64,000 nucleotides of DNA from the NCBI GenBank assembly GCA_963836755.1, contig CAWIKF010000002.1:1344001-1408000 (forward strand), in the 5' to 3' direction. This DNA is from an uncultured Verrucomicrobiae bacterium (GTDB taxonomy: Bacteria; Verrucomicrobiota; Verrucomicrobiia; Chthoniobacterales; Chthoniobacteraceae). A model generated the notes under the pieces. It was not told the DNA's origin and searched no databases. It saw only the letters and a list, made by a program, of their open reading frames with translations. A program made the position numbers and the translations under genes. Positions 12,834 to 29,086 of the stretch are shown here, piece by piece; the stretch's first letter is position 1; every line of letters begins with the position of its first letter.

Positions 12834-13009
12834 ATTTCATCAGTTGCGAGTTATGAAGAAAGCCCATAGATGCCTGCTCCACGCGCGCTGCATCGTCGCA
12901 AAGGCAGCCCAAGGGCGCGACTTCGGCTGGCATTGGCAGCACATCCTGCGCGAGGTCGGTCGCGGACAATACTCCATGCAACGCCACACCGGCAGCGCCT
13001 TTCAAGCAC

Positions 13010-13507
13010 ATGCTCTACCTGAATAACTCCGCCGAGCAGCACGACATGGAATTGCACCGATCCTTGTCGGCGGCGGACGGTTACTTGTTTCTCGGATTGC
13101 CGGAGCTCGCGCTGGAAGAGCTCGACGAAATCCGCGATGCGCATAGCGACGACTCGTCGGTCTTGCGCGCGCGCATCCGCGCTCTTTTGCACATGAAGCG
13201 CTGGCGCGATGCGAATCACCTATCGGAAAAAGGGAACGAGTTTTACCCCGACGAAAATGAATTTGTCGTGCAGCGCGCGTTTGCTTTGCACCAGATGAAA
13301 AAGGGCGGCGAGGCCGTGCAGGTTTTGTTGAGCGCGCCGGAATGGCTGCGCCGCACGGGAATTTTGCATTACAATCTCGCGTGCTACGAAGCACAGCTCG
13401 GCGACGTCAATACCGCGCGGCAGTGCATTCACGCTGCGATCGAGATCAACTCCGCGTTCAAGAAAAACGCGCGCACCGATCCCGACTTGCAGCGGCTCTG
13501 GAACTGA
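13010..13507 (+). CDS. tetratricopeptide repeat protein
   Basis: GYLFLGLPELALEEL; HYNLACYEAQLG..ARTDPDL terminal TPR pattern. Confidence 0.85.
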   Translation: MLYLNNSAEQHDMELHRSLSAADGYLFLGLPELALEELDEIRDAHSDDSSVLRARIRALLHMKRWRDANHLSEKGNEFYPDENEFVVQRAFALHQMKKGGEAVQVLLSAPEWLRRTGILHYNLACYEAQLGDVNTARQCIHAAIEINSAFKKNARTDPDLQRLWN

Positions 13508-17636: not shown

Positions 17637-19283
17637 TTATTCGCATTCGCAGACGAGGCGGAAGCCGACGTCATTTGCAAGATATTCCGGCACGTTCACG
17701 TTGCGCGTGCTCGCGCGCAGGCTCGTCGCGCGTGACTTCCAGCTTCCGCCGCGATACACGCGCCGACCGGTTTTCGCGATGCTGTGCGGGTTCGTCCGCT
17801 CGTGTCCTTTGTAGGGCTCGTAAAAATCGTGGCACCATTCCCAAACATTGCCGGCCATGTCCTCGATGCCGAAAGGGCTTGCGCCGCGCGGATAAGTTCC
17901 GACCGGCGCGGTTTCCGCATAGCCATCGTTGATCTCGACGTCGCGCCACGCGAACGTTGTGTTCGCATCCGCGAAATTTGCGAGCTCCCCGCAGTTCAAC
18001 TTTTCGCCCCACGGAAACGTGCGCCCTTCCATTCCGCGCGCCGCATATTCCCATTCGGCCTCGGTCGGCAGCCGATATTTTCGACGCTCGCGCGCACTCA
18101 GCCATGCGCAGAAATTCTGCGCATCGAGACTGCTGACATAAACCACCGGATGCGTCTCGTCGGCGCGCGGTGCACGTTTGGCGCGATGCGCTGGATCGAA
18201 AAATTCGTATTCGCGATTTGTGACCGTGAAGCGCGACATGTAAAAGCAGCTCACGTTTGTGCGAGCGGCGGGCTTCTCATTCGGCGGCGCATCCGGGTCA
18301 TCGCTGCCCATGATGAAAGTGCCGGACGGCACGAATAGCATTTCGCCGCCAAGCGCGTTTTTAAAATTCTGATGTTTTTGCCGCTCCTGGTCGCGGGCGA
18401 GGGGAGAAAAATGGATGGCACTCTCGACCGCGGGCGCAGCTACTTTTACAGCCTCGGTTTTCGGCGCAGCCGCGGGACGCGGGGGCGTCATCACACGCGC
18501 GGCCGGCGTGACCGGAGTCGGCGGCAGTCCGCTCACTTCATCGAGATATTGATCGATTAAATCTTCCGCCTGCCCGCCAGTGAGTCCGAGATTTTCGCCC
18601 ATGTTGCACAACGCATCGCGCTGGTCGTCAGTCAACTCGTCATCGCCGCCCAAGCCTGTCAAACGCAGCATCCGCGAGAATTCGGCAGCGGGATCGCTTG
18701 ACGCCGCGCCGGGTGCAATTTTCGGCGGCGCGCTGGCATTCGGATTGGCCGAAACAGGCTCTGCGATGGGCTGCGCGACAACTTTGACCCGCCTCTTCAC
18801 GCCACGTTTCTGCACCTCGGCTTCCACCATGATTTTCATCTCCTCGATGTTGAGGCCGGTGTTCGAGCCGAGGTTGTAGAGGTTTGTTTCGTCATCCTCC
18901 GCGAGCACTCCGCCCGCGAGCGCGAAGTCGAGAAATTTGTAAAATTCCGTCGCGGCATTTTCCTTCATCCGCGCGCGGATTTTTTCGTCGGCTTTCGCGC
19001 GGCTCGGCGGATGAAGCAGCAGCGTGCGCGCTTCGGCCAGATACTTCGGCGCTTCATCGAGACCGGATCGCAGCATCTGCGTCATCGGATTGCTTGGCTG
19101 ACTTTTCAGCGGCAATTTTTTTTGCCACCAAACAAGCAGCTGCCGGCAGTTATCCTCGATCTTCTGGTTGCTCGGATTGGTGTCAAAGGAAAGACAGAGC
19201 CGCTCGTAAAGATCCTCGGAGGAATAAGCCTTCCAGCCGGTCCATTTCGTCGGATTGTCCGGGAGAGGGTCGGGCAGCGACAT
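17637..19283 (-). CDS. multidomain protein: J-like N-terminus, two helical repeats, C-terminal FGE-sulfatase (SUMF1-like) domain
   Basis: FIMGS, RLPTEAEWEYAARG, DMAGNVWEW, RGGSW, GFRL; N-terminal DLYERL and LAEARTLLLHPPSRAKAD. Confidence 0.85.
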   Translation of the reverse strand: MSLPDPLPDNPTKWTGWKAYSSEDLYERLCLSFDTNPSNQKIEDNCRQLLVWWQKKLPLKSQPSNPMTQMLRSGLDEAPKYLAEARTLLLHPPSRAKADEKIRARMKENAATEFYKFLDFALAGGVLAEDDETNLYNLGSNTGLNIEEMKIMVEAEVQKRGVKRRVKVVAQPIAEPVSANPNASAPPKIAPGAASSDPAAEFSRMLRLTGLGGDDELTDDQRDALCNMGENLGLTGGQAEDLIDQYLDEVSGLPPTPVTPAARVMTPPRPAAAPKTEAVKVAAPAVESAIHFSPLARDQERQKHQNFKNALGGEMLFVPSGTFIMGSDDPDAPPNEKPAARTNVSCFYMSRFTVTNREYEFFDPAHRAKRAPRADETHPVVYVSSLDAQNFCAWLSARERRKYRLPTEAEWEYAARGMEGRTFPWGEKLNCGELANFADANTTFAWRDVEINDGYAETAPVGTYPRGASPFGIEDMAGNVWEWCHDFYEPYKGHERTNPHSIAKTGRRVYRGGSWKSRATSLRASTRNVNVPEYLANDVGFRLVCECE

Positions 19284-19303
19284 TGCGTTCCGTTAACGCT
19301 GCG

Positions 19304-20884
19304 TTACATCACTGCAACTTGCGACAAATCCGCTGTCGCCTCGGCGAGCTCGAGATCATTCAAGCCGACGTTGCGTGCAATCGAAACGCGGTTCTGCTTT
19401 CCAAAGGCGTCGACCGTCACTTCCAGCACTTGGTTCGCGTCGTAGCGATACGTCAACTCAACCGGAGAGCCTTTCGGCAAAAATGGCGGGAGCTCAATGT
19501 CGCACACGCCAAGCGGGGTGCACTCGCCCGGAACAGTGCTTTCGCCCTCGACCACGCGCACGATCGCGTTTTTCATATTCGCCTTTGCGGTGCCGAAGGA
19601 ATTTTTCATCTCGACCGGAATCGCGGTCATTTTCTTGATCATCGGGAAAACATATTCCTCAACTTTCGCGTCATCCCAAAGGACGACACCAAGCGTGTGC
19701 GTGGTGATATTCGTCACCTTCATCAATGCGCCGGATTTGTCGGAAAATTGCTCGCGCACCTCGATCGGCAGCACGCGCTCGCCGAGTTTCTCTTCCTCGT
19801 TGAGCAGCGCGAGAATGCCTTGCGCCGCCGCACCGATCGACACTGCTTCGTCCGGGCTGAGGTCCTCAGCGACCTCCGTGTTCGACAAATTTTTAATCAT
19901 CTCGCGCACGGATGGCATGCGTGACATGCCGCCCGTGAGCAGCACGCGATCGATTTTCGACCAGTCGAGCTTCGCTTCCTGCATCACGATCTCGCAGATC
20001 ATTTTGCATTTCTCGAGCAGATGGCTCGCGCGCTTTTCAAACTCGTCGCGCGTCAATTCCAGCTTGATGCTGTGGCCGTTGTAATTGTGCACGATCGTCG
20101 TGCTTGAGCGCGTGGAAAGCTGCACTTTCGCGGCGAGCGCGCGGTTGTAGAGATCTTGGTAGCTTTGCAAATCGAGCAGCGGATTTTCGCCATGCTGCCG
20201 GTCAAATTCGTCCGCGACCCAGTTCACGATGATGTCGTCCCAATCCTTGCCGCCAAGCCGATGATCGCCATTGCTCGCGAGCATCCGGATGTGGTGGCTC
20301 TCGATTCTCATGATCGTGACGTCGAACGTGCCGCCGCCGAGATCGAATACGAACGCGGTCTGCTGCGTATCGCGCTTGTTCAGCCCATACGCGAGCGCCG
20401 CGGCCGTCGGCTCGTTGATGATCTGTAAAACATTCAGCCCTGCGAGCTGGCCTGCATGCAAGGTCGCCGTGCGCTCGGCGTCGTTGAAATAAGCGGGCAC
20501 GGTGATCACTGCGTCGGTCACTCGAGTGGCGAGATATTTTTCCGCGTCGTTTTTGAGTTTCTTGATGATGAGCGCGGAGAGCTCTTCGGCTGTGTATAAC
20601 TTTCCGTTAAACTCGCGGTTAAACTCCGCGCGGCTCTTTCCCATTTCGCGTTTCACAAAATCAACGATCTTTTCCGGCTCCGCCACCGCGTTTTGTTTCG
20701 CCATCGTGCCTACGATCGCCTGACTGCCATCAAACAAAATCACTGACGGCGTGATACGCTCGTTTTCCGCATTCGGGATGATTTGCGGTTTGCCGTATTG
20801 GTCGATGTGCGCGATCGCCGAGAAAGTGGTGCCGAGGTCGATGCCGACTGCTTTGCGTGGAGGAGGTGTTCGATTATCGCTCAT
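19304..20884 (-). CDS. Hsp70 family protein lacking the C-terminal lid
   Basis: GIDLGTT, ITVPAYF, INEPTAAALAYG, FDLGGGTFD, LLTGGMSRMP, PDEAV; ends shortly after the beta substrate-binding domain. Confidence 0.95.
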   Translation of the reverse strand: MSDNRTPPPRKAVGIDLGTTFSAIAHIDQYGKPQIIPNAENERITPSVILFDGSQAIVGTMAKQNAVAEPEKIVDFVKREMGKSRAEFNREFNGKLYTAEELSALIIKKLKNDAEKYLATRVTDAVITVPAYFNDAERTATLHAGQLAGLNVLQIINEPTAAALAYGLNKRDTQQTAFVFDLGGGTFDVTIMRIESHHIRMLASNGDHRLGGKDWDDIIVNWVADEFDRQHGENPLLDLQSYQDLYNRALAAKVQLSTRSSTTIVHNYNGHSIKLELTRDEFEKRASHLLEKCKMICEIVMQEAKLDWSKIDRVLLTGGMSRMPSVREMIKNLSNTEVAEDLSPDEAVSIGAAAQGILALLNEEEKLGERVLPIEVREQFSDKSGALMKVTNITTHTLGVVLWDDAKVEEYVFPMIKKMTAIPVEMKNSFGTAKANMKNAIVRVVEGESTVPGECTPLGVCDIELPPFLPKGSPVELTYRYDANQVLEVTVDAFGKQNRVSIARNVGLNDLELAEATADLSQVAVM

Positions 20885-20948
20885 GTGGTGTGGTTCCAAA
20901 AAATCCTTGTTTTGAGAAAGCGAATTGCATGCCACGGGCAGGCAATCC

Positions 20949-21707
20949 TCATTTTTGCGCCGGCGCCAGCTCGACCAGGCAACCTTCCTTCCATTTCCGA
21001 ATCACGACTTCCTCGGGGCGCAAAAGCCGCTCGCGCCACAAAAATCCGGGCTTCAAACTTGCCACGATCATTTGATCGTCCTCCTGCGTCTCAGCCATTT
21101 CCACGGACACCGCACGCTGATTTTGTTTGTCCAGCCGGCCCGTCGATGCCTCCACGCGATGCACTTCCATGCGCGCCAAAATTTCTAGCACCGAATGCAC
21201 CGCGTGATCGAGATTCGTGCTGAGCAGCCGCGTTTTTTGCAGAGCAGGAGAAAAATTTCCCGCCTGCTCCACGAGAAAGGCTGCGGTCTGCCGATGGAGC
21301 GCCGACAGGTCGTCGAAAAGCGTGATCAAATCGCGCACGATCGGCTTGTGAAAAACATCGAGCAGGAAATCGTCTTTGTAGCTGCGCAATTCATCGTGCA
21401 GCGCGTCAAACTGCTTCTGATTCAGCACCTCTTTTTGCTCCAGACTTGTCCGCAGCGCCGCGAGCACCTCCGGCAGCCCCGCCTGCGCAGCCACACTCGC
21501 TTCCAGCCGCTCCAGCGTCCGCGTGTTCTCCGACGTCACGCGCCCGAGCGCATCAATTCCCTGCACCAGCGGCTTCAAAATTTTCGCGAGATTCTCCATC
21601 TTCGGCGCCGCTTGCTCTTCGTGTGAAAGGTGGTCCGCTTCCTGCGAAAGCGACTTCATCTGCAACTCAAAATCGGCTGCGTCGTCAATGACATGCATGT
21701 CTGGCAT
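20949..21707 (-). CDS. GrpE-like nucleotide exchange factor
   Basis: Coiled-coil N-terminus; C-terminal QRAVSV..IVASLKPGFLWRERLLRPEEVVI GrpE head pattern. Confidence 0.85.
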   Translation of the reverse strand: MPDMHVIDDAADFELQMKSLSQEADHLSHEEQAAPKMENLAKILKPLVQGIDALGRVTSENTRTLERLEASVAAQAGLPEVLAALRTSLEQKEVLNQKQFDALHDELRSYKDDFLLDVFHKPIVRDLITLFDDLSALHRQTAAFLVEQAGNFSPALQKTRLLSTNLDHAVHSVLEILARMEVHRVEASTGRLDKQNQRAVSVEMAETQEDDQMIVASLKPGFLWRERLLRPEEVVIRKWKEGCLVELAPAQK

Positions 21708-21719
21708 GCACAAAACCAA

Positions 21720-21735
21720 AGCGAAATTCGCGCCA
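21720..21735 (-). promoter_or_regulatory. sigma54-type -24/-12 element
   Basis: Minus strand TGGCGCGAATTTCGCT directly upstream of the GrpE-like gene. Confidence 0.55.
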
Positions 21736-21781: not shown

Positions 21782-22201
21782 CTATCCGCCGAGCACGCTC
21801 ACGATCAGCCGCCGGCGATGCGATGCACGCCGATGCTCGAAAACAAAAATTCCCTGCCACGTCCCGAGCTGCATCTGCGCGTGAGCGATCGGAATTGTCT
21901 CGCTCGTCCGCGTCAAAACCATGCGAATGTGCGACGTCGAATCGTCGGAACCCTCCGCCGTGTGCGTGAAATACTTCGAATTCTCCGGCACCAACTTTTC
22001 AAAATACGCCTCGAGATCCGTCCGCGCCGAGCGATCCGCATTTTCAAAAATAATCAGGCTCGCACTCGTGTGCTGCAGGAAAACCGTCACCGCGCCCGTC
22101 GTCACTCCGCTCTCGCGCACCGCGCGCTCGACGTCCTCCGTGATTTCGTAAGTCCCTTTCCCGCGCGTTACGATTTCGAATGTAGCGGTGTGCGCTTTCA
22201 A
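21782..22201 (-). CDS. yjbQ: YjbQ/UPF0047 family protein
   Basis: HTSASLIIFENAD, HTAEGSDD, LGTWQGIFVFEHR. Confidence 0.92.
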   Translation of the reverse strand: MKAHTATFEIVTRGKGTYEITEDVERAVRESGVTTGAVTVFLQHTSASLIIFENADRSARTDLEAYFEKLVPENSKYFTHTAEGSDDSTSHIRMVLTRTSETIPIAHAQMQLGTWQGIFVFEHRRASHRRRLIVSVLGG

Positions 22202-26581: not shown

Positions 26582-28255
26582 TTACAAAGCGGAAAGCTCG
26601 CGAACGACTTCGCGCGGCGATTTGTCCTCGCGCAGGCCCAGGAACGCCGGATGGCGCAGGCCGGCATCGCGCGTCCATTCCGTGAAGCGCACCTGGCAGA
26701 CGAGCGCAGGCTCGATCCAGGTGCAGCGCTTCATCTCGGCGCGCGTAATTCCCTGTCCCCATCGGCCTTTGCGCTGAGTCGGCAGATTCGCAAAGGGGCA
26801 ATCGTCGCGCTGCAACTTTTTCATCTTCGCGTGCAATTCGCGCAAAAGTTTTTCGCTGAAACCGGTGCCAACTTTTGCCGCAAAGATCAGTTTTTCCTTT
26901 TCGTAAAAACCGACGAGCAGCGCGCCGAAATGGCTGCGCGCGCCTTGCGGATCGGTGAAGCCGCCGATGACAAATTCCTGTTCGTTCGTCACTTTTAATT
27001 TCACCCACGCACCGCTTCGCCGGCCGGTTTCGTAAACGGAATCGCCGCGTTTGCCGACGATACCCTCGAGCCCGAGTTTTTTTACATTGTTTAAAAGTTC
27101 AGCGACGTCGCCTTCGAGATTTGCGGAAAAGCGGATTTCGTCCGGCGCATCTTCGAGCAACTTTTCCAAAACTTTTTTCCGTTCGGTCAAAGGCAATCCG
27201 CGCAAATCGCGGCCTTCGAGATTCAATAAATCGAACGCGTAATAACAGATCGGCGGATGCTCCTCGTTCATGTCGTGCGCCTGCAGGAGCTGAAAAGATG
27301 GGCGACCTTTTTCGTCGAGCGCGACAACTTCGCCATCGATCACCGCGCTTTTGCACGGAAGTTTTTTCAGCGCCGGAACCAGCTCCGGAAATTTTTGCGT
27401 CAAGGTTTTTTGGTTGCGCGAAATAAGTTCCGCATCCTTTTCGCGCTTGATGACGAGCGCGCGGAAGCCGTCGAATTTCAACTCGTAAATCCAGCCGGTT
27501 CCCGACGGTTTTTTTTCCACGGACTTTGCTTTCATCGGCTCGATGAATGCCGGTTTCGCCTCTGGAAGTTTTTTCAGTTCGGCGAGATCGAATGACGCGT
27601 TCTTTGCCGCGACTTCTTTTTCAACGACGGATTTTTCGCGAACTTTGGTCGCGAAACTTTTGCTTTTGTCGTCGCGGTTCGATTGCCATTCGGCGTCTTT
27701 GTCGGCAGCGATGCGCGCCATTGTCCGCTGCGTCAGGATCGATTCGTCGTCGTGCTTTTTGGAAATCGCGCGCATCGACTCGTCGCTTTTCAAAAGCAGC
27801 CACGCATTTTTTTCGTCAGAATTTTTGAGCGCGATCAGCGTCCATTCGCCGTCGAGTTTTTTTCCGTGGAGCGCAAAGTGCAGCTTCCCCTCGTCGAGGT
27901 CGCGCGCGGGCTCGTCGCTGCCGAGCGGCTCCCACGTGCCGATGTCCCACACCATCACGGTGCCGCCGCCGTATTGGCCTTTCGGGATGATGCCCTCGAA
28001 GCGCGCGTAATCGAGCGGATGATCCTCGACGTGCATCGCGAGACGCCTGTCGCCTTTTTTAAATGGGACGCCTTTCGGCACGGCCCACGATTTCAGGACG
28101 CCGTCGAGCTCGAGGCGGAAGTCGTAGTGCAGCCGCGAGGCGTCGTGTTTTTGAATGACGAAAAGCAGGCCTTTTTTGCGCCGCGCTTTTGTTTTTGGCG
28201 CAGGCTCCGCGGTTTTTTTGAAATCGCGTTTCGCCTTGTATTCGCGCAGTCCCAT
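26582..28255 (-). CDS. ligD: NHEJ DNA ligase D (phosphoesterase + ligase domains only)
   Basis: FVIQKHDASRLHYDFRLE; YELKFDGFR; EGIVGKR..WVKLK; LRHPAFLGLREDK. Confidence 0.93.
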   Translation of the reverse strand: MGLREYKAKRDFKKTAEPAPKTKARRKKGLLFVIQKHDASRLHYDFRLELDGVLKSWAVPKGVPFKKGDRRLAMHVEDHPLDYARFEGIIPKGQYGGGTVMVWDIGTWEPLGSDEPARDLDEGKLHFALHGKKLDGEWTLIALKNSDEKNAWLLLKSDESMRAISKKHDDESILTQRTMARIAADKDAEWQSNRDDKSKSFATKVREKSVVEKEVAAKNASFDLAELKKLPEAKPAFIEPMKAKSVEKKPSGTGWIYELKFDGFRALVIKREKDAELISRNQKTLTQKFPELVPALKKLPCKSAVIDGEVVALDEKGRPSFQLLQAHDMNEEHPPICYYAFDLLNLEGRDLRGLPLTERKKVLEKLLEDAPDEIRFSANLEGDVAELLNNVKKLGLEGIVGKRGDSVYETGRRSGAWVKLKVTNEQEFVIGGFTDPQGARSHFGALLVGFYEKEKLIFAAKVGTGFSEKLLRELHAKMKKLQRDDCPFANLPTQRKGRWGQGITRAEMKRCTWIEPALVCQVRFTEWTRDAGLRHPAFLGLREDKSPREVVRELSAL

Positions 28256-28267
28256 TGGAACCGCGGC

Positions 28268-29086
28268 TCAGGCCGCTTTTTTGCGCTTCGCGGGCGCAGA
28301 AGTTTTCTTCGATTTTTTGCCGGAGTTTTGAAGGCTTTGCTGCAAGACGGAGACGAGATCGATGACGTTCGTGGCCTTGCGTTTCGGCGCGGGTTTGCCG
28401 GGCGCGGCTTCGGGATGCTCGATTTTTTCCTCGATGACTTTTTCCAATTTCGCGCGGTAGTCGTCCTTGTATTTTTCGGGCTCCCACTCGCCGCTCATGC
28501 TGTCAACGAGCGCCGTCGCCATATCGAGTTCCTTTTTGCCGACCTCATGTTTCGTGATTTTTAATTCGCTGGCGTTCACGAGTTCTTCGGCGAAATGCAT
28601 CAGCTCGAGCACGAGGCCGCGCTGGCTCGGTTTTACGCCTGCGAGATATTGGCGCGTTTTGATGACGACTTTTGCGATGCCAATCTTGCCGGTTTTTTCC
28701 AGCGCCTCGCGGAGCAGCGCGTAGGCTTTGTCGCCGCCTTTTTCCGGCTCCATATAATAAGGCTTGTAGAAAAACATCGGGTCCACTTCCTCGAGATCGA
28801 CGAAATCCGTGATATCCACCGTCTGCGTCGCCTCGACATCCACGCGGGCAAAATCTTCATCCTTTAGCACGATGAATTTTCCTTTTTCGTGCTCGTAGCC
28901 TTTCACGATCTGATCCCACGGAACCTCCTTGCCATCGGCCTCAGCGACGCGTTTGTAATTGACTGGGCTCAAATCGCTCGCGCGCAAAAGGCGGAATTTC
29001 AGCTCCTCTTTTCGCGTCGCCGGATAAAGCGCGATCGGAATGTTGACGAGGCCGAACGAAATGGCTCCCTTCCAAATGGCACGCAT
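28268..29086 (-). CDS. ku: Ku protein
   Basis: MRAIWKGAISFGLVNIP, IVKGYE, basic C-terminal tail. Confidence 0.97.
   Translation of the reverse strand: MRAIWKGAISFGLVNIPIALYPATRKEELKFRLLRASDLSPVNYKRVAEADGKEVPWDQIVKGYEHEKGKFIVLKDEDFARVDVEATQTVDITDFVDLEEVDPMFFYKPYYMEPEKGGDKAYALLREALEKTGKIGIAKVVIKTRQYLAGVKPSQRGLVLELMHFAEELVNASELKITKHEVGKKELDMATALVDSMSGEWEPEKYKDDYRAKLEKVIEEKIEHPEAAPGKPAPKRKATNVIDLVSVLQQSLQNSGKKSKKTSAPAKRKKAA

Follow-up and report, generated by a model that had tools for sequence, protein, structure and literature searches.

A 64,000-nucleotide (nt) stretch of contig CAWIKF010000002.1 (the window), from an uncultured Verrucomicrobiae bacterium of the order Chthoniobacterales, carries three adjacent minus-strand genes that encode a GrpE-like protein, an Hsp70 without a lid and a multidomain protein that we call the adaptor. 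We consider it very probable that these three genes (the triad) form a dedicated chaperone set. Among named loci, the nearest belong to Chthoniobacterales. Across this order the triad and one type IV pilus system are retained or missing in concert, a pattern suggesting that the triad services the motor of that pilus. For the statement as a whole, a dedicated Hsp70 machine servicing one particular type IV pilus system, our analysis leaves the chances about even.

The association of the three genes is conserved. The order GrpE-like, Hsp70, adaptor was found at 45 of the 51 loci having both Hsp70 and adaptor, and in the window the genes are separated by 64 nt (GrpE-like/Hsp70) and 20 nt (Hsp70/adaptor). 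One locus (L045, G446:C62:392500-397600) has breaks in the reading frames of both Hsp70 and adaptor, through sequencing error or decay. A sigma54-type box precedes the GrpE-like gene. When we scored the pattern TGGC-N9-GC(T/A) followed 9-18 nt downstream by the ATG of a long open reading frame, with the expectation taken from the genome-wide rate, 24 of 45 GrpE-bearing loci had a box with an ATG 11-17 nt downstream, versus 0.008 expected per locus. Overall the box was present at 24 of 57 loci, all 24 of which carry the GrpE-like gene; none was found in triad loci of families f3, f13 and f21. The source genome encodes RpoN and four strong sigma54-activator matches. The short spacing between box and ATG in the window suggests that the mRNA would be leaderless, or nearly so, with translation beginning at ATG 21707. 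A second box precedes the Hsp70 gene, and a similar one was found in just 4 of 51 loci; it is therefore probably minor or a chance match.

The Hsp70 retains its catalytic core and has lost its lid. The Pfam HSP70 model is covered from position 1 to 513 of 599, and mapping of 21 triad Hsp70s on E. coli DnaK placed the end of the chain near DnaK residue 525; lid helices B-E are therefore missing. The ten ATP and catalytic residues checked were identical to those of DnaK in 21 of 21 sequences. Equivalents of the relay residues P143, D148, R151, K414 and L484 were kept in the same 21, together with the pocket Phe, which argues for a functional substrate domain. The linker reads MKVTN here and [IMV]xVTN in most, versus DVLLLD in DnaK, and there is an insertion of ~22 residues. 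Identity was 36-37% to canonical DnaK, 35% to the HscA encoded in the same genome and 34% to HscC. Scores fell below the equivalog cut-offs for DnaK (411-415 bits; cut-offs 648 and 823) and HscA (328 bits; cut-off 709). In a tree of 27 sequences, the triad Hsp70s formed one clade apart from DnaK, HscA and HscC (support 100/99), in a topology with just four outgroup sequences from those families and with long branches, HscC being one.

The surface at which Hsp70 receives canonical J proteins has also changed. We took the list of J-contact residues from PMC8215388. DnaK R167, which contacts the Asp of the His-Pro-Asp (HPD) motif (PMC8215388), is replaced by Q in 12 of 15 verrucomicrobial and by G in 6 of 6 distant triad Hsp70s, and Q was found in 37 of 42 matched Hsp70s of a larger set. 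In this Hsp70 the equivalents of E206, E217 and D477 are all R. The equivalent of L391 is V in all triad Hsp70s compared, and Q378 and P419 are retained. The triad Hsp70 has also lost nucleotide-cleft salt-bridge residues, and its subdomain IIB loop is shortened, features tied to GrpE independence in HscA and HscC (PMC8215388).

These features are in line with the absence of the GrpE-like gene from 6 of the 51 loci with Hsp70 and adaptor. A search of five genomes with such loci found a GrpE-like gene elsewhere in one and no match in the others, so the gene is dispensable in some genera. Where present, its product is a putative dedicated nucleotide exchange factor, judging from its sequence (Pfam GrpE, E=4.8e-10). 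The source genome (96% complete) also encodes a canonical DnaK, a GrpE-DnaJ pair, and an HscA-like gene with an adjoining HPD-bearing HscB-like gene (C2:1540753-1543033). Therefore, the triad is a third Hsp70 system in this genome.

The adaptor was modeled with AlphaFold2 (AF2) over its full 548 amino acids (aa), with 60 sequences, and over residues 1-250, with 18 sequences (mean predicted local distance difference test (pLDDT) 86). The models show a four-helix domain, two three-helix repeats and an FGE fold. In the four-helix domain, helices span residues 25-28, 39-55, 66-90 and 92 onward. A VIA fold search of 48,161 solved chains returned J domains or J proteins in 11 of the top 17 rows, with Z scores of 6.3-8.0 that are modest for helical folds. 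The top six Foldseek rows were J-containing, none reaching E 0.001, and in hhalign comparisons with five canonical J domains the broad family reached 96%, the verrucomicrobial set on its own just 8%. Pfam DnaJ did not match the adaptor N-terminus, and none of 57 adaptors has HPD within its first 110 residues. In its place lies a WWQKKLPLKxQPxNP segment, and residues 52-66 stand at 99% consensus over 60 homologues. In all systems tested, Hsp70 was no longer stimulated once the His or the Asp of this motif had been replaced (PMC8215388; PMC13580251). With a J-fold that lacks HPD and an Hsp70 that has lost the contact residues, recruitment therefore cannot be canonical.

The two repeats of the adaptor match each other (hhalign probability 92%) and weakly resemble half a TerB domain: superposition on the TerB-family chain 2ou3 was weak (Z 5.4, root-mean-square deviation 1.4 over 55 residues), and a TerB-repeat protein was found among the adaptor profile matches. 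No family in Pfam, NCBIfam or PADLOC matched the N-terminal 250 residues, and the ESM Atlas returned unnamed clusters only, plus a weak TerB/DjlA lead at 0.77. The C-terminus matches Pfam FGE-sulfatase (residues 314-544, E=2e-52) and is a putative client-binding domain, as judged from its sequence. The adaptor does not retain the cysteine motif known from human FGE, with its catalytic Cys pair after RGGS: in this stretch, 46 of 52 matched motifs had no Cys, 5 had one and 1 had two. The fold scored far under every NCBIfam enzyme cut-off. A fold search with the whole adaptor was dominated by this domain, and its structural neighbors include PvdO and ToxD. We rejected the idea that it is a hypervariable target of a diversity-generating retroelement, as residues 508-545 are conserved (their consensus among 60 homologues is 82%, versus a mean of 76% for the domain); no reverse transcriptase search was made.

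An earlier, sequence-only reading of this stretch had described three tightly spaced genes behind a sigma54-type box, a 526-aa Hsp70 with intact ATPase motifs, a third protein with no signal peptide and an FGE-sulfatase C-terminus, and a triad separate from housekeeping dnaK. Each of these descriptions agrees with what we found; in particular, the adaptor is a cytoplasmic protein containing no hydrophobic segment (maximum 19-residue hydropathy 1.02). Its J-domain outline holds at the level of predicted fold, and fails at the level of the Pfam DnaJ match and the HPD motif. That reading had named three findings that would speak against it, and in each case the opposite was observed: the N-terminus has a predicted J-like fold, the genes co-occur in other genomes, and this is not the only Hsp70 in the genome.

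We next consider inheritance. The adaptor profile matched 138 of the 301 genomes of the order (one of them, G326, unpublished), usually in single copy, and presence or absence followed largely whole families: 52/65 in f1, 54/64 in f3, 19/19 in f8 and 5/5 in f58, against 0/61 in f7, 0/28 in f6 and 0/16 in f59. Beyond the order, four genomes of two families in another order were matched in a 201-genome sample of the class, and a 401-genome sample of the phylum gave no full module outside the order (11 weak partial matches). In most families the triad lies 3' of the haem operon ccsA-hemA-hemC-cobA, a linkage absent in f5, f13 and f21, and the tree of triad Hsp70s groups by family. Single copy, a whole-family pattern, a fixed site and a family-wise tree together indicate vertical inheritance, unlike a defence island. 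A plasmid search found no triad-type Hsp70 (best matches about 36-42% identity) and no adaptor module, and two queries of viral contigs found neither. Five second adaptor copies that we examined (L063, L078-L081; f3 and f8) are more divergent, with no Hsp70 or GrpE-like gene upstream.

The link to a pilus emerged from the promoter pattern. Among its 40 matches in the source genome, many of them intragenic, are a PilT-family ATPase and a PilC/GspF-like gene. A PilT/PilU pair (C2:501624-503774, L095) and a lone PilC-like gene (C2:2029688, L096) each lie 3' of a sigma54-like box, and they define a second type IV pilus system that is kept in part of the order. The source genome has at least six PilT-family matches, and PilT as a whole family was discarded as a tracker of the triad because it is near-universal (269/301 genomes); one orthologue alone tracks. 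With orthologue thresholds of E<1e-155 for PilT and E<1e-150 for PilC, this PilT was present in 135 of the 301 genomes. Adaptor and PilT orthologue occurred together in 133 genomes and were both missing from 161, with 5 adaptor-only and 2 PilT-only genomes, so that 294 of 301 are concordant and 7 discordant. The joint absences extend inside families: genus g115 (10/10), g123 and G248 in f1, and ten f3 genomes.

Other genes were compared in a panel of 38 genomes, 20 with and 18 without the triad. The PilC orthologue was present in 20/20 and 2/18, respectively. Four further genes were rejected as trackers, namely another PilT paralogue (9/20 and 2/18), LigD (13/20 and 7/18), RpoN (20/20 and 18/18) and a sigma54-boxed polysaccharide exporter (12/20 and 11/18). 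Since neither RpoN nor the exporter follows the triad, loss of the sigma54 regulon would not by itself produce the pattern. A second PilM-like match was found in 2/2 positive and 0/3 negative genomes; there was no PspA match in the source genome. In the class sample, 12 of 12 triad-bearing genomes carried the PilT orthologue.

Several observations weigh against this assignment to the pilus. The relation is nested, as the pilus can exist without the triad: 24 of the 36 class-sample genomes with the PilT orthologue have no triad, and nor do G434 and G206. (In neither of the two PilT-only genomes does an assembly gap at the usual site account for the missing triad, since unrelated sequence comes after cobA in each; the triad could still be on an unassembled part of the genome.) The triad is not adjacent to the pilus genes. 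Related genomes are not independent, and the co-occurrence may amount to a handful of joint losses. The PilT lead was drawn post hoc from the promoter list, the 38-genome panel was picked after the PilT counts were known, and four control genes were tried, with no genome-wide null. The boxes preceding pilT and pilC were identified with a loose pattern, in the source genome only. The comparison covered genomes of the order and class, and the distant relatives (below) carry membrane anchors and variable outer domains. The predicted contact between Hsp70 and adaptor has its own weaknesses: contact agreement among the three runs falls as low as 0%, a DnaK-J complex is already solved, so that the pass may come from likeness, and the controls did not include canonical DnaK as a rival partner.

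That prediction was made for the Hsp70 with adaptor residues 1-165, ATP and Mg. The complex scored 0.63 versus 0.00 for the best of three controls, with partner pLDDT >=86, in a run whose custom alignments and ligand place it outside calibration; the mark it passed is reached by 116 of 157 solved pairs and 2 of 215 mismatched pairs. In the best run, adaptor residues 9-12 and 56-67 would contact Hsp70 residues 70-90 and 213-246, a pose on subdomains IB/IIB beside the nucleotide cleft and away from the canonical linker site. Clade-specific residues make up 7 of the 23 Hsp70 contact residues and 30 of the 503 others, a count that is not independent of the model's input alignment. We treat the pose as a hypothesis. 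The proposal in the sequence-only reading that the J-like domain recruits the Hsp70 thus gains from a complex prediction that passes, with the caveats above, and loses its canonical form.

The N-terminal module belongs to a wider family. When 1.84 billion representatives were searched by profile, 255 matches were returned, 150 of them listed; among those listed, 43 were scanned, and many join the J-like-plus-repeat module to other domains. The partners in distant members comprise a second J domain, Ig-like, PEGA, PDZ, LamG, TPR, YARHG, NTF2-like and FGE domains, with TonB-C also among the outer domains. The second J domain occurs in 12 distant proteins, 0 of 12 with HPD, and membrane helices are predicted in 26 of 28 distant proteins checked. 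Nine metagenome loci were examined for one distant subgroup, which has a member labelled Acidobacteriaceae by its source: seven have a related lidless Hsp70 of ~532 aa directly upstream, and six of these seven also have a GrpE-like gene; of the other two, one had no upstream room and one had no Hsp70 within 0.9 kb. A related triad in distant bacteria implies that the triad is an older cassette. Variable C-termini, which the sequence-only reading had anticipated, are thus found across distant relatives, and in Verrucomicrobia the FGE C-terminus is fixed and conserved.

Other features were noted around the distant members. P0277 (558 aa) lacks a substrate-binding domain; its degenerate Hsp70 nucleotide-binding domain (NBD) is joined straight to the J-like module. 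Two genes recur on the upstream side of the distant triad (L033:1780-4076, L038:1908-4188): one encodes a 253-aa membrane protein with a zinc ribbon, the other a TPR protein of ~500 aa with a double zinc ribbon, and they may be further parts of this version of the system. A domain of ~150 residues with no Pfam match occurs by itself near the distant triad or fused to the adaptor N-terminus (L038:4867-5352; L033:7596-8030 and 12885-13310; L031:940-1386). On the minus strand of L038 (10735-15711), 3' of the triad, lie genes for DUF932, an SNF2-like helicase and a DUF6094 methyltransferase, a content that suggests a mobile element.

How might such a machine work on a pilus? In many lineages, transcription would start from the sigma54 promoter. 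Either the non-catalytic FGE fold of the adaptor or its TerB-like repeats would bind a specific client in the cytoplasm, while the HPD-less J-fold would tether the cognate lidless Hsp70, the conserved loop fitting a co-diverged Hsp70 surface and perhaps stimulating the ATPase. Having neither lid nor cleft salt bridges, the Hsp70 would take up and release the client fast, and the GrpE-like protein would act as an accessory exchange factor. The likeliest client would be a subunit or regulator of the pilus motor (the PilB/PilT/PilC layer). A broader proposal, which we advance only tentatively, is that of a new Hsp70 class in which another docking code has taken over from HPD-triggered activation: an HPD-less J-fold would dock on clade-specific residues at IB/IIB, and a plug-in adaptor would carry exchangeable target domains, the FGE version being pilus-dedicated in Chthoniobacterales and the adaptor being membrane-anchored and variable in acidobacteria-like and other lineages.

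The alternative that fares best is a dedicated chaperone for some other client of the same surface-associated lifestyle, in the envelope, adhesion or signalling, that is co-regulated and co-lost with the pilus but has no contact with it. We regard this as possible, though clearly less likely than service to the pilus itself. The absence of physical linkage to pilus genes and the existence of the pilus without the triad in other orders both favour it, and the membrane anchors and LamG, YARHG, PEGA, PDZ and TonB-C domains of distant members point to the envelope; however, no other candidate client is in view, and the control genes speak against loss of a shared sigma54 regulon.

It is improbable, in our estimate, that the triad is a conflict or anti-phage system resembling the GAP1-N2 systems with Hsp70, GrpE and FNIII-DnaJ, with the adaptor as sensor of an invader and the Hsp70 setting a threshold, perhaps kept only where the pilus admits phages. 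The variable C-termini of distant members (PEGA, PDZ, NTF2-like, TPR, FGE, Ig-like) match the GAP1-N2 repertoire (PMC7159879), L038 adjoins helicase, DUF932 and DUF6094 genes that look mobile, and orphan second adaptor copies occur at five loci. Yet the verrucomicrobial locus is mostly single-copy, distributed by whole families at a fixed site with a family-wise tree, and its FGE C-terminus is conserved rather than hypervariable. No effector domain, no meaningful PADLOC match and no plasmid or viral-contig match was found, and the 96%-complete source genome gave no GAP1-N2 or DO-GTPase2 match (PF20013 and PF19993, with 1 of 14 control genomes matched; DO-GTPase1 was not searched). The conflict or defence role that had been floated for this locus is thus disfavoured by vertical inheritance in the order and by a distribution that follows one type IV pilus system.

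Less probable again is that the Hsp70 acts as a regulator or exchange factor for canonical DnaK, in the manner of Hsp110, or as a switch read by the adaptor. Such a role is a general proposal for bacterial DnaK derivatives (PMC13580251), and it would accommodate the missing lid, the altered linker, a best predicted pose near the nucleotide cleft (IB/IIB) and off the linker, and the P0277 fusion; conservation of the relay residues and pocket Phe in 21 of 21 sequences, and an Hsp70 with its own GrpE-like partner, argue the other way. Finally, we think it very unlikely that the FGE fold is an enzyme (like PvdO, ToxD or the EgtB C-terminus) and that the Hsp70 set matures it or a haem-pathway neighbor: the domain is conserved, PvdO and ToxD are among its structural neighbors and the locus lies 3' of ccsA-hemA-hemC-cobA in many families, but there is no catalytic Cys pair, every NCBIfam enzyme cut-off is missed, the haem-operon link is lacking in f5, f13 and f21, cobA is kept in 5/5 triad-less genomes, and distant members swap the FGE domain for unrelated ones.

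A role at the pilus has precedent in the cyanobacterial DnaK1, DnaJ and GrpE proteins, which act at type IV pilus motors (PMC9239167; PMC13710413). Like DnaK1-DnaJ3(J1)-GrpE, the triad pairs a non-housekeeping Hsp70 with its own J partner, involves an alternative sigma factor and has a distribution tied to pili or motility; unlike it, the triad lies in one operon with a private GrpE-like gene, its Hsp70 is lidless and its J-fold lacks HPD. HscC-DjlB/DjlC and HscA-HscB of E. coli likewise set a short specialised Hsp70 beside a cognate J protein, with cleft salt bridges and the GrpE-signature loop lost or shortened (PMC8215388). HscC and HscA do not use GrpE (PMC8215388), whereas the triad Hsp70 is encoded with a GrpE-like gene, has wholly lost its lid and forms a separate clade. 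With canonical DnaK the triad Hsp70 has in common each of the ten catalytic residues checked and the majority of the allosteric ones; it differs in lid, linker and J-binding surface, and misses the DnaK equivalog cut-offs.

The GAP1-N2 theme (PMC7159879) also combines an Hsp70, a GrpE and a J-bearing multidomain protein, and distant members of our family share its Ig-like, transmembrane, PEGA, PDZ, NTF2-like, TPR and FGE elements. Unlike that theme, no GTPase or GAP1 gene was found in this genome or in the open reading frames scanned around L033 and L038, and the verrucomicrobial locus is fixed and vertical. The fusion of an FNIII/Ig-repeat protein to DnaJ or TPR is absent from this adaptor; the Ig-like form occurs in distant members. 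The triad would operate like a specialised Hsp70/J pair, and falls outside DnaK, HscA, HscC, canonical J proteins, FGE and GAP1-N2 by the membership tests applied. Our literature search found no published description; the nearest paper is PMC7159879, whose figure source data, outside the files searched, could list such loci. We conclude that the triad is a real, conserved and apparently undescribed variant of specialised Hsp70 systems.

Table 1. Features of the triad locus, in window coordinates.
Feature	Positions	Strand	Details
GrpE-like gene	20949-21707	minus	252 aa; ATG at 21707
Lidless Hsp70 gene	19304-20884	minus	526 aa
Adaptor gene	17637-19283	minus	548 aa
Sigma54-type -24/-12 box	21735-21720	minus	TGGCGC-N5-TCGCT; 12 nt 5' of the GrpE-like ATG 21707
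Second sigma54-like box	20919-20934	minus	34 nt 5' of the Hsp70 ATG
J-fold domain	18969-19283	minus	adaptor residues 1-105; AF2, fold searches, hhalign
Two three-helix repeats	18531-18962	minus	adaptor residues 108-251; half-TerB-like, joined by a Pro/Ala linker
FGE-sulfatase (C-type lectin-like) fold	17637-18371	minus	adaptor C-terminus; Pfam

Two neighboring features of the window deserve mention. Between cobA and the triad lies a UPF0047 (YjbQ-like) gene (21782-22201, minus) that was undetected in the 18 related loci compared. Genes that we take, by sequence likeness, to be Ku-like and LigD-like adjoin at 26582-29086 (minus); LigD is one of the control genes of the 38-genome panel.

Bacterial DnaK derivatives are largely unexplored (PMC8215388; PMC13580251). 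A natural and widely conserved pair in which J-fold and Hsp70 both lack the HPD contact offers a test of how else an Hsp70 cycle may be driven, and the triad also allows the role of a lidless Hsp70 to be probed. Its tight tie to one pilus system supplies a concrete candidate client, in an order of soil and freshwater bacteria that is common and little studied. Should the link to the pilus be true, Hsp70 systems dedicated to pili would have had more than one origin.

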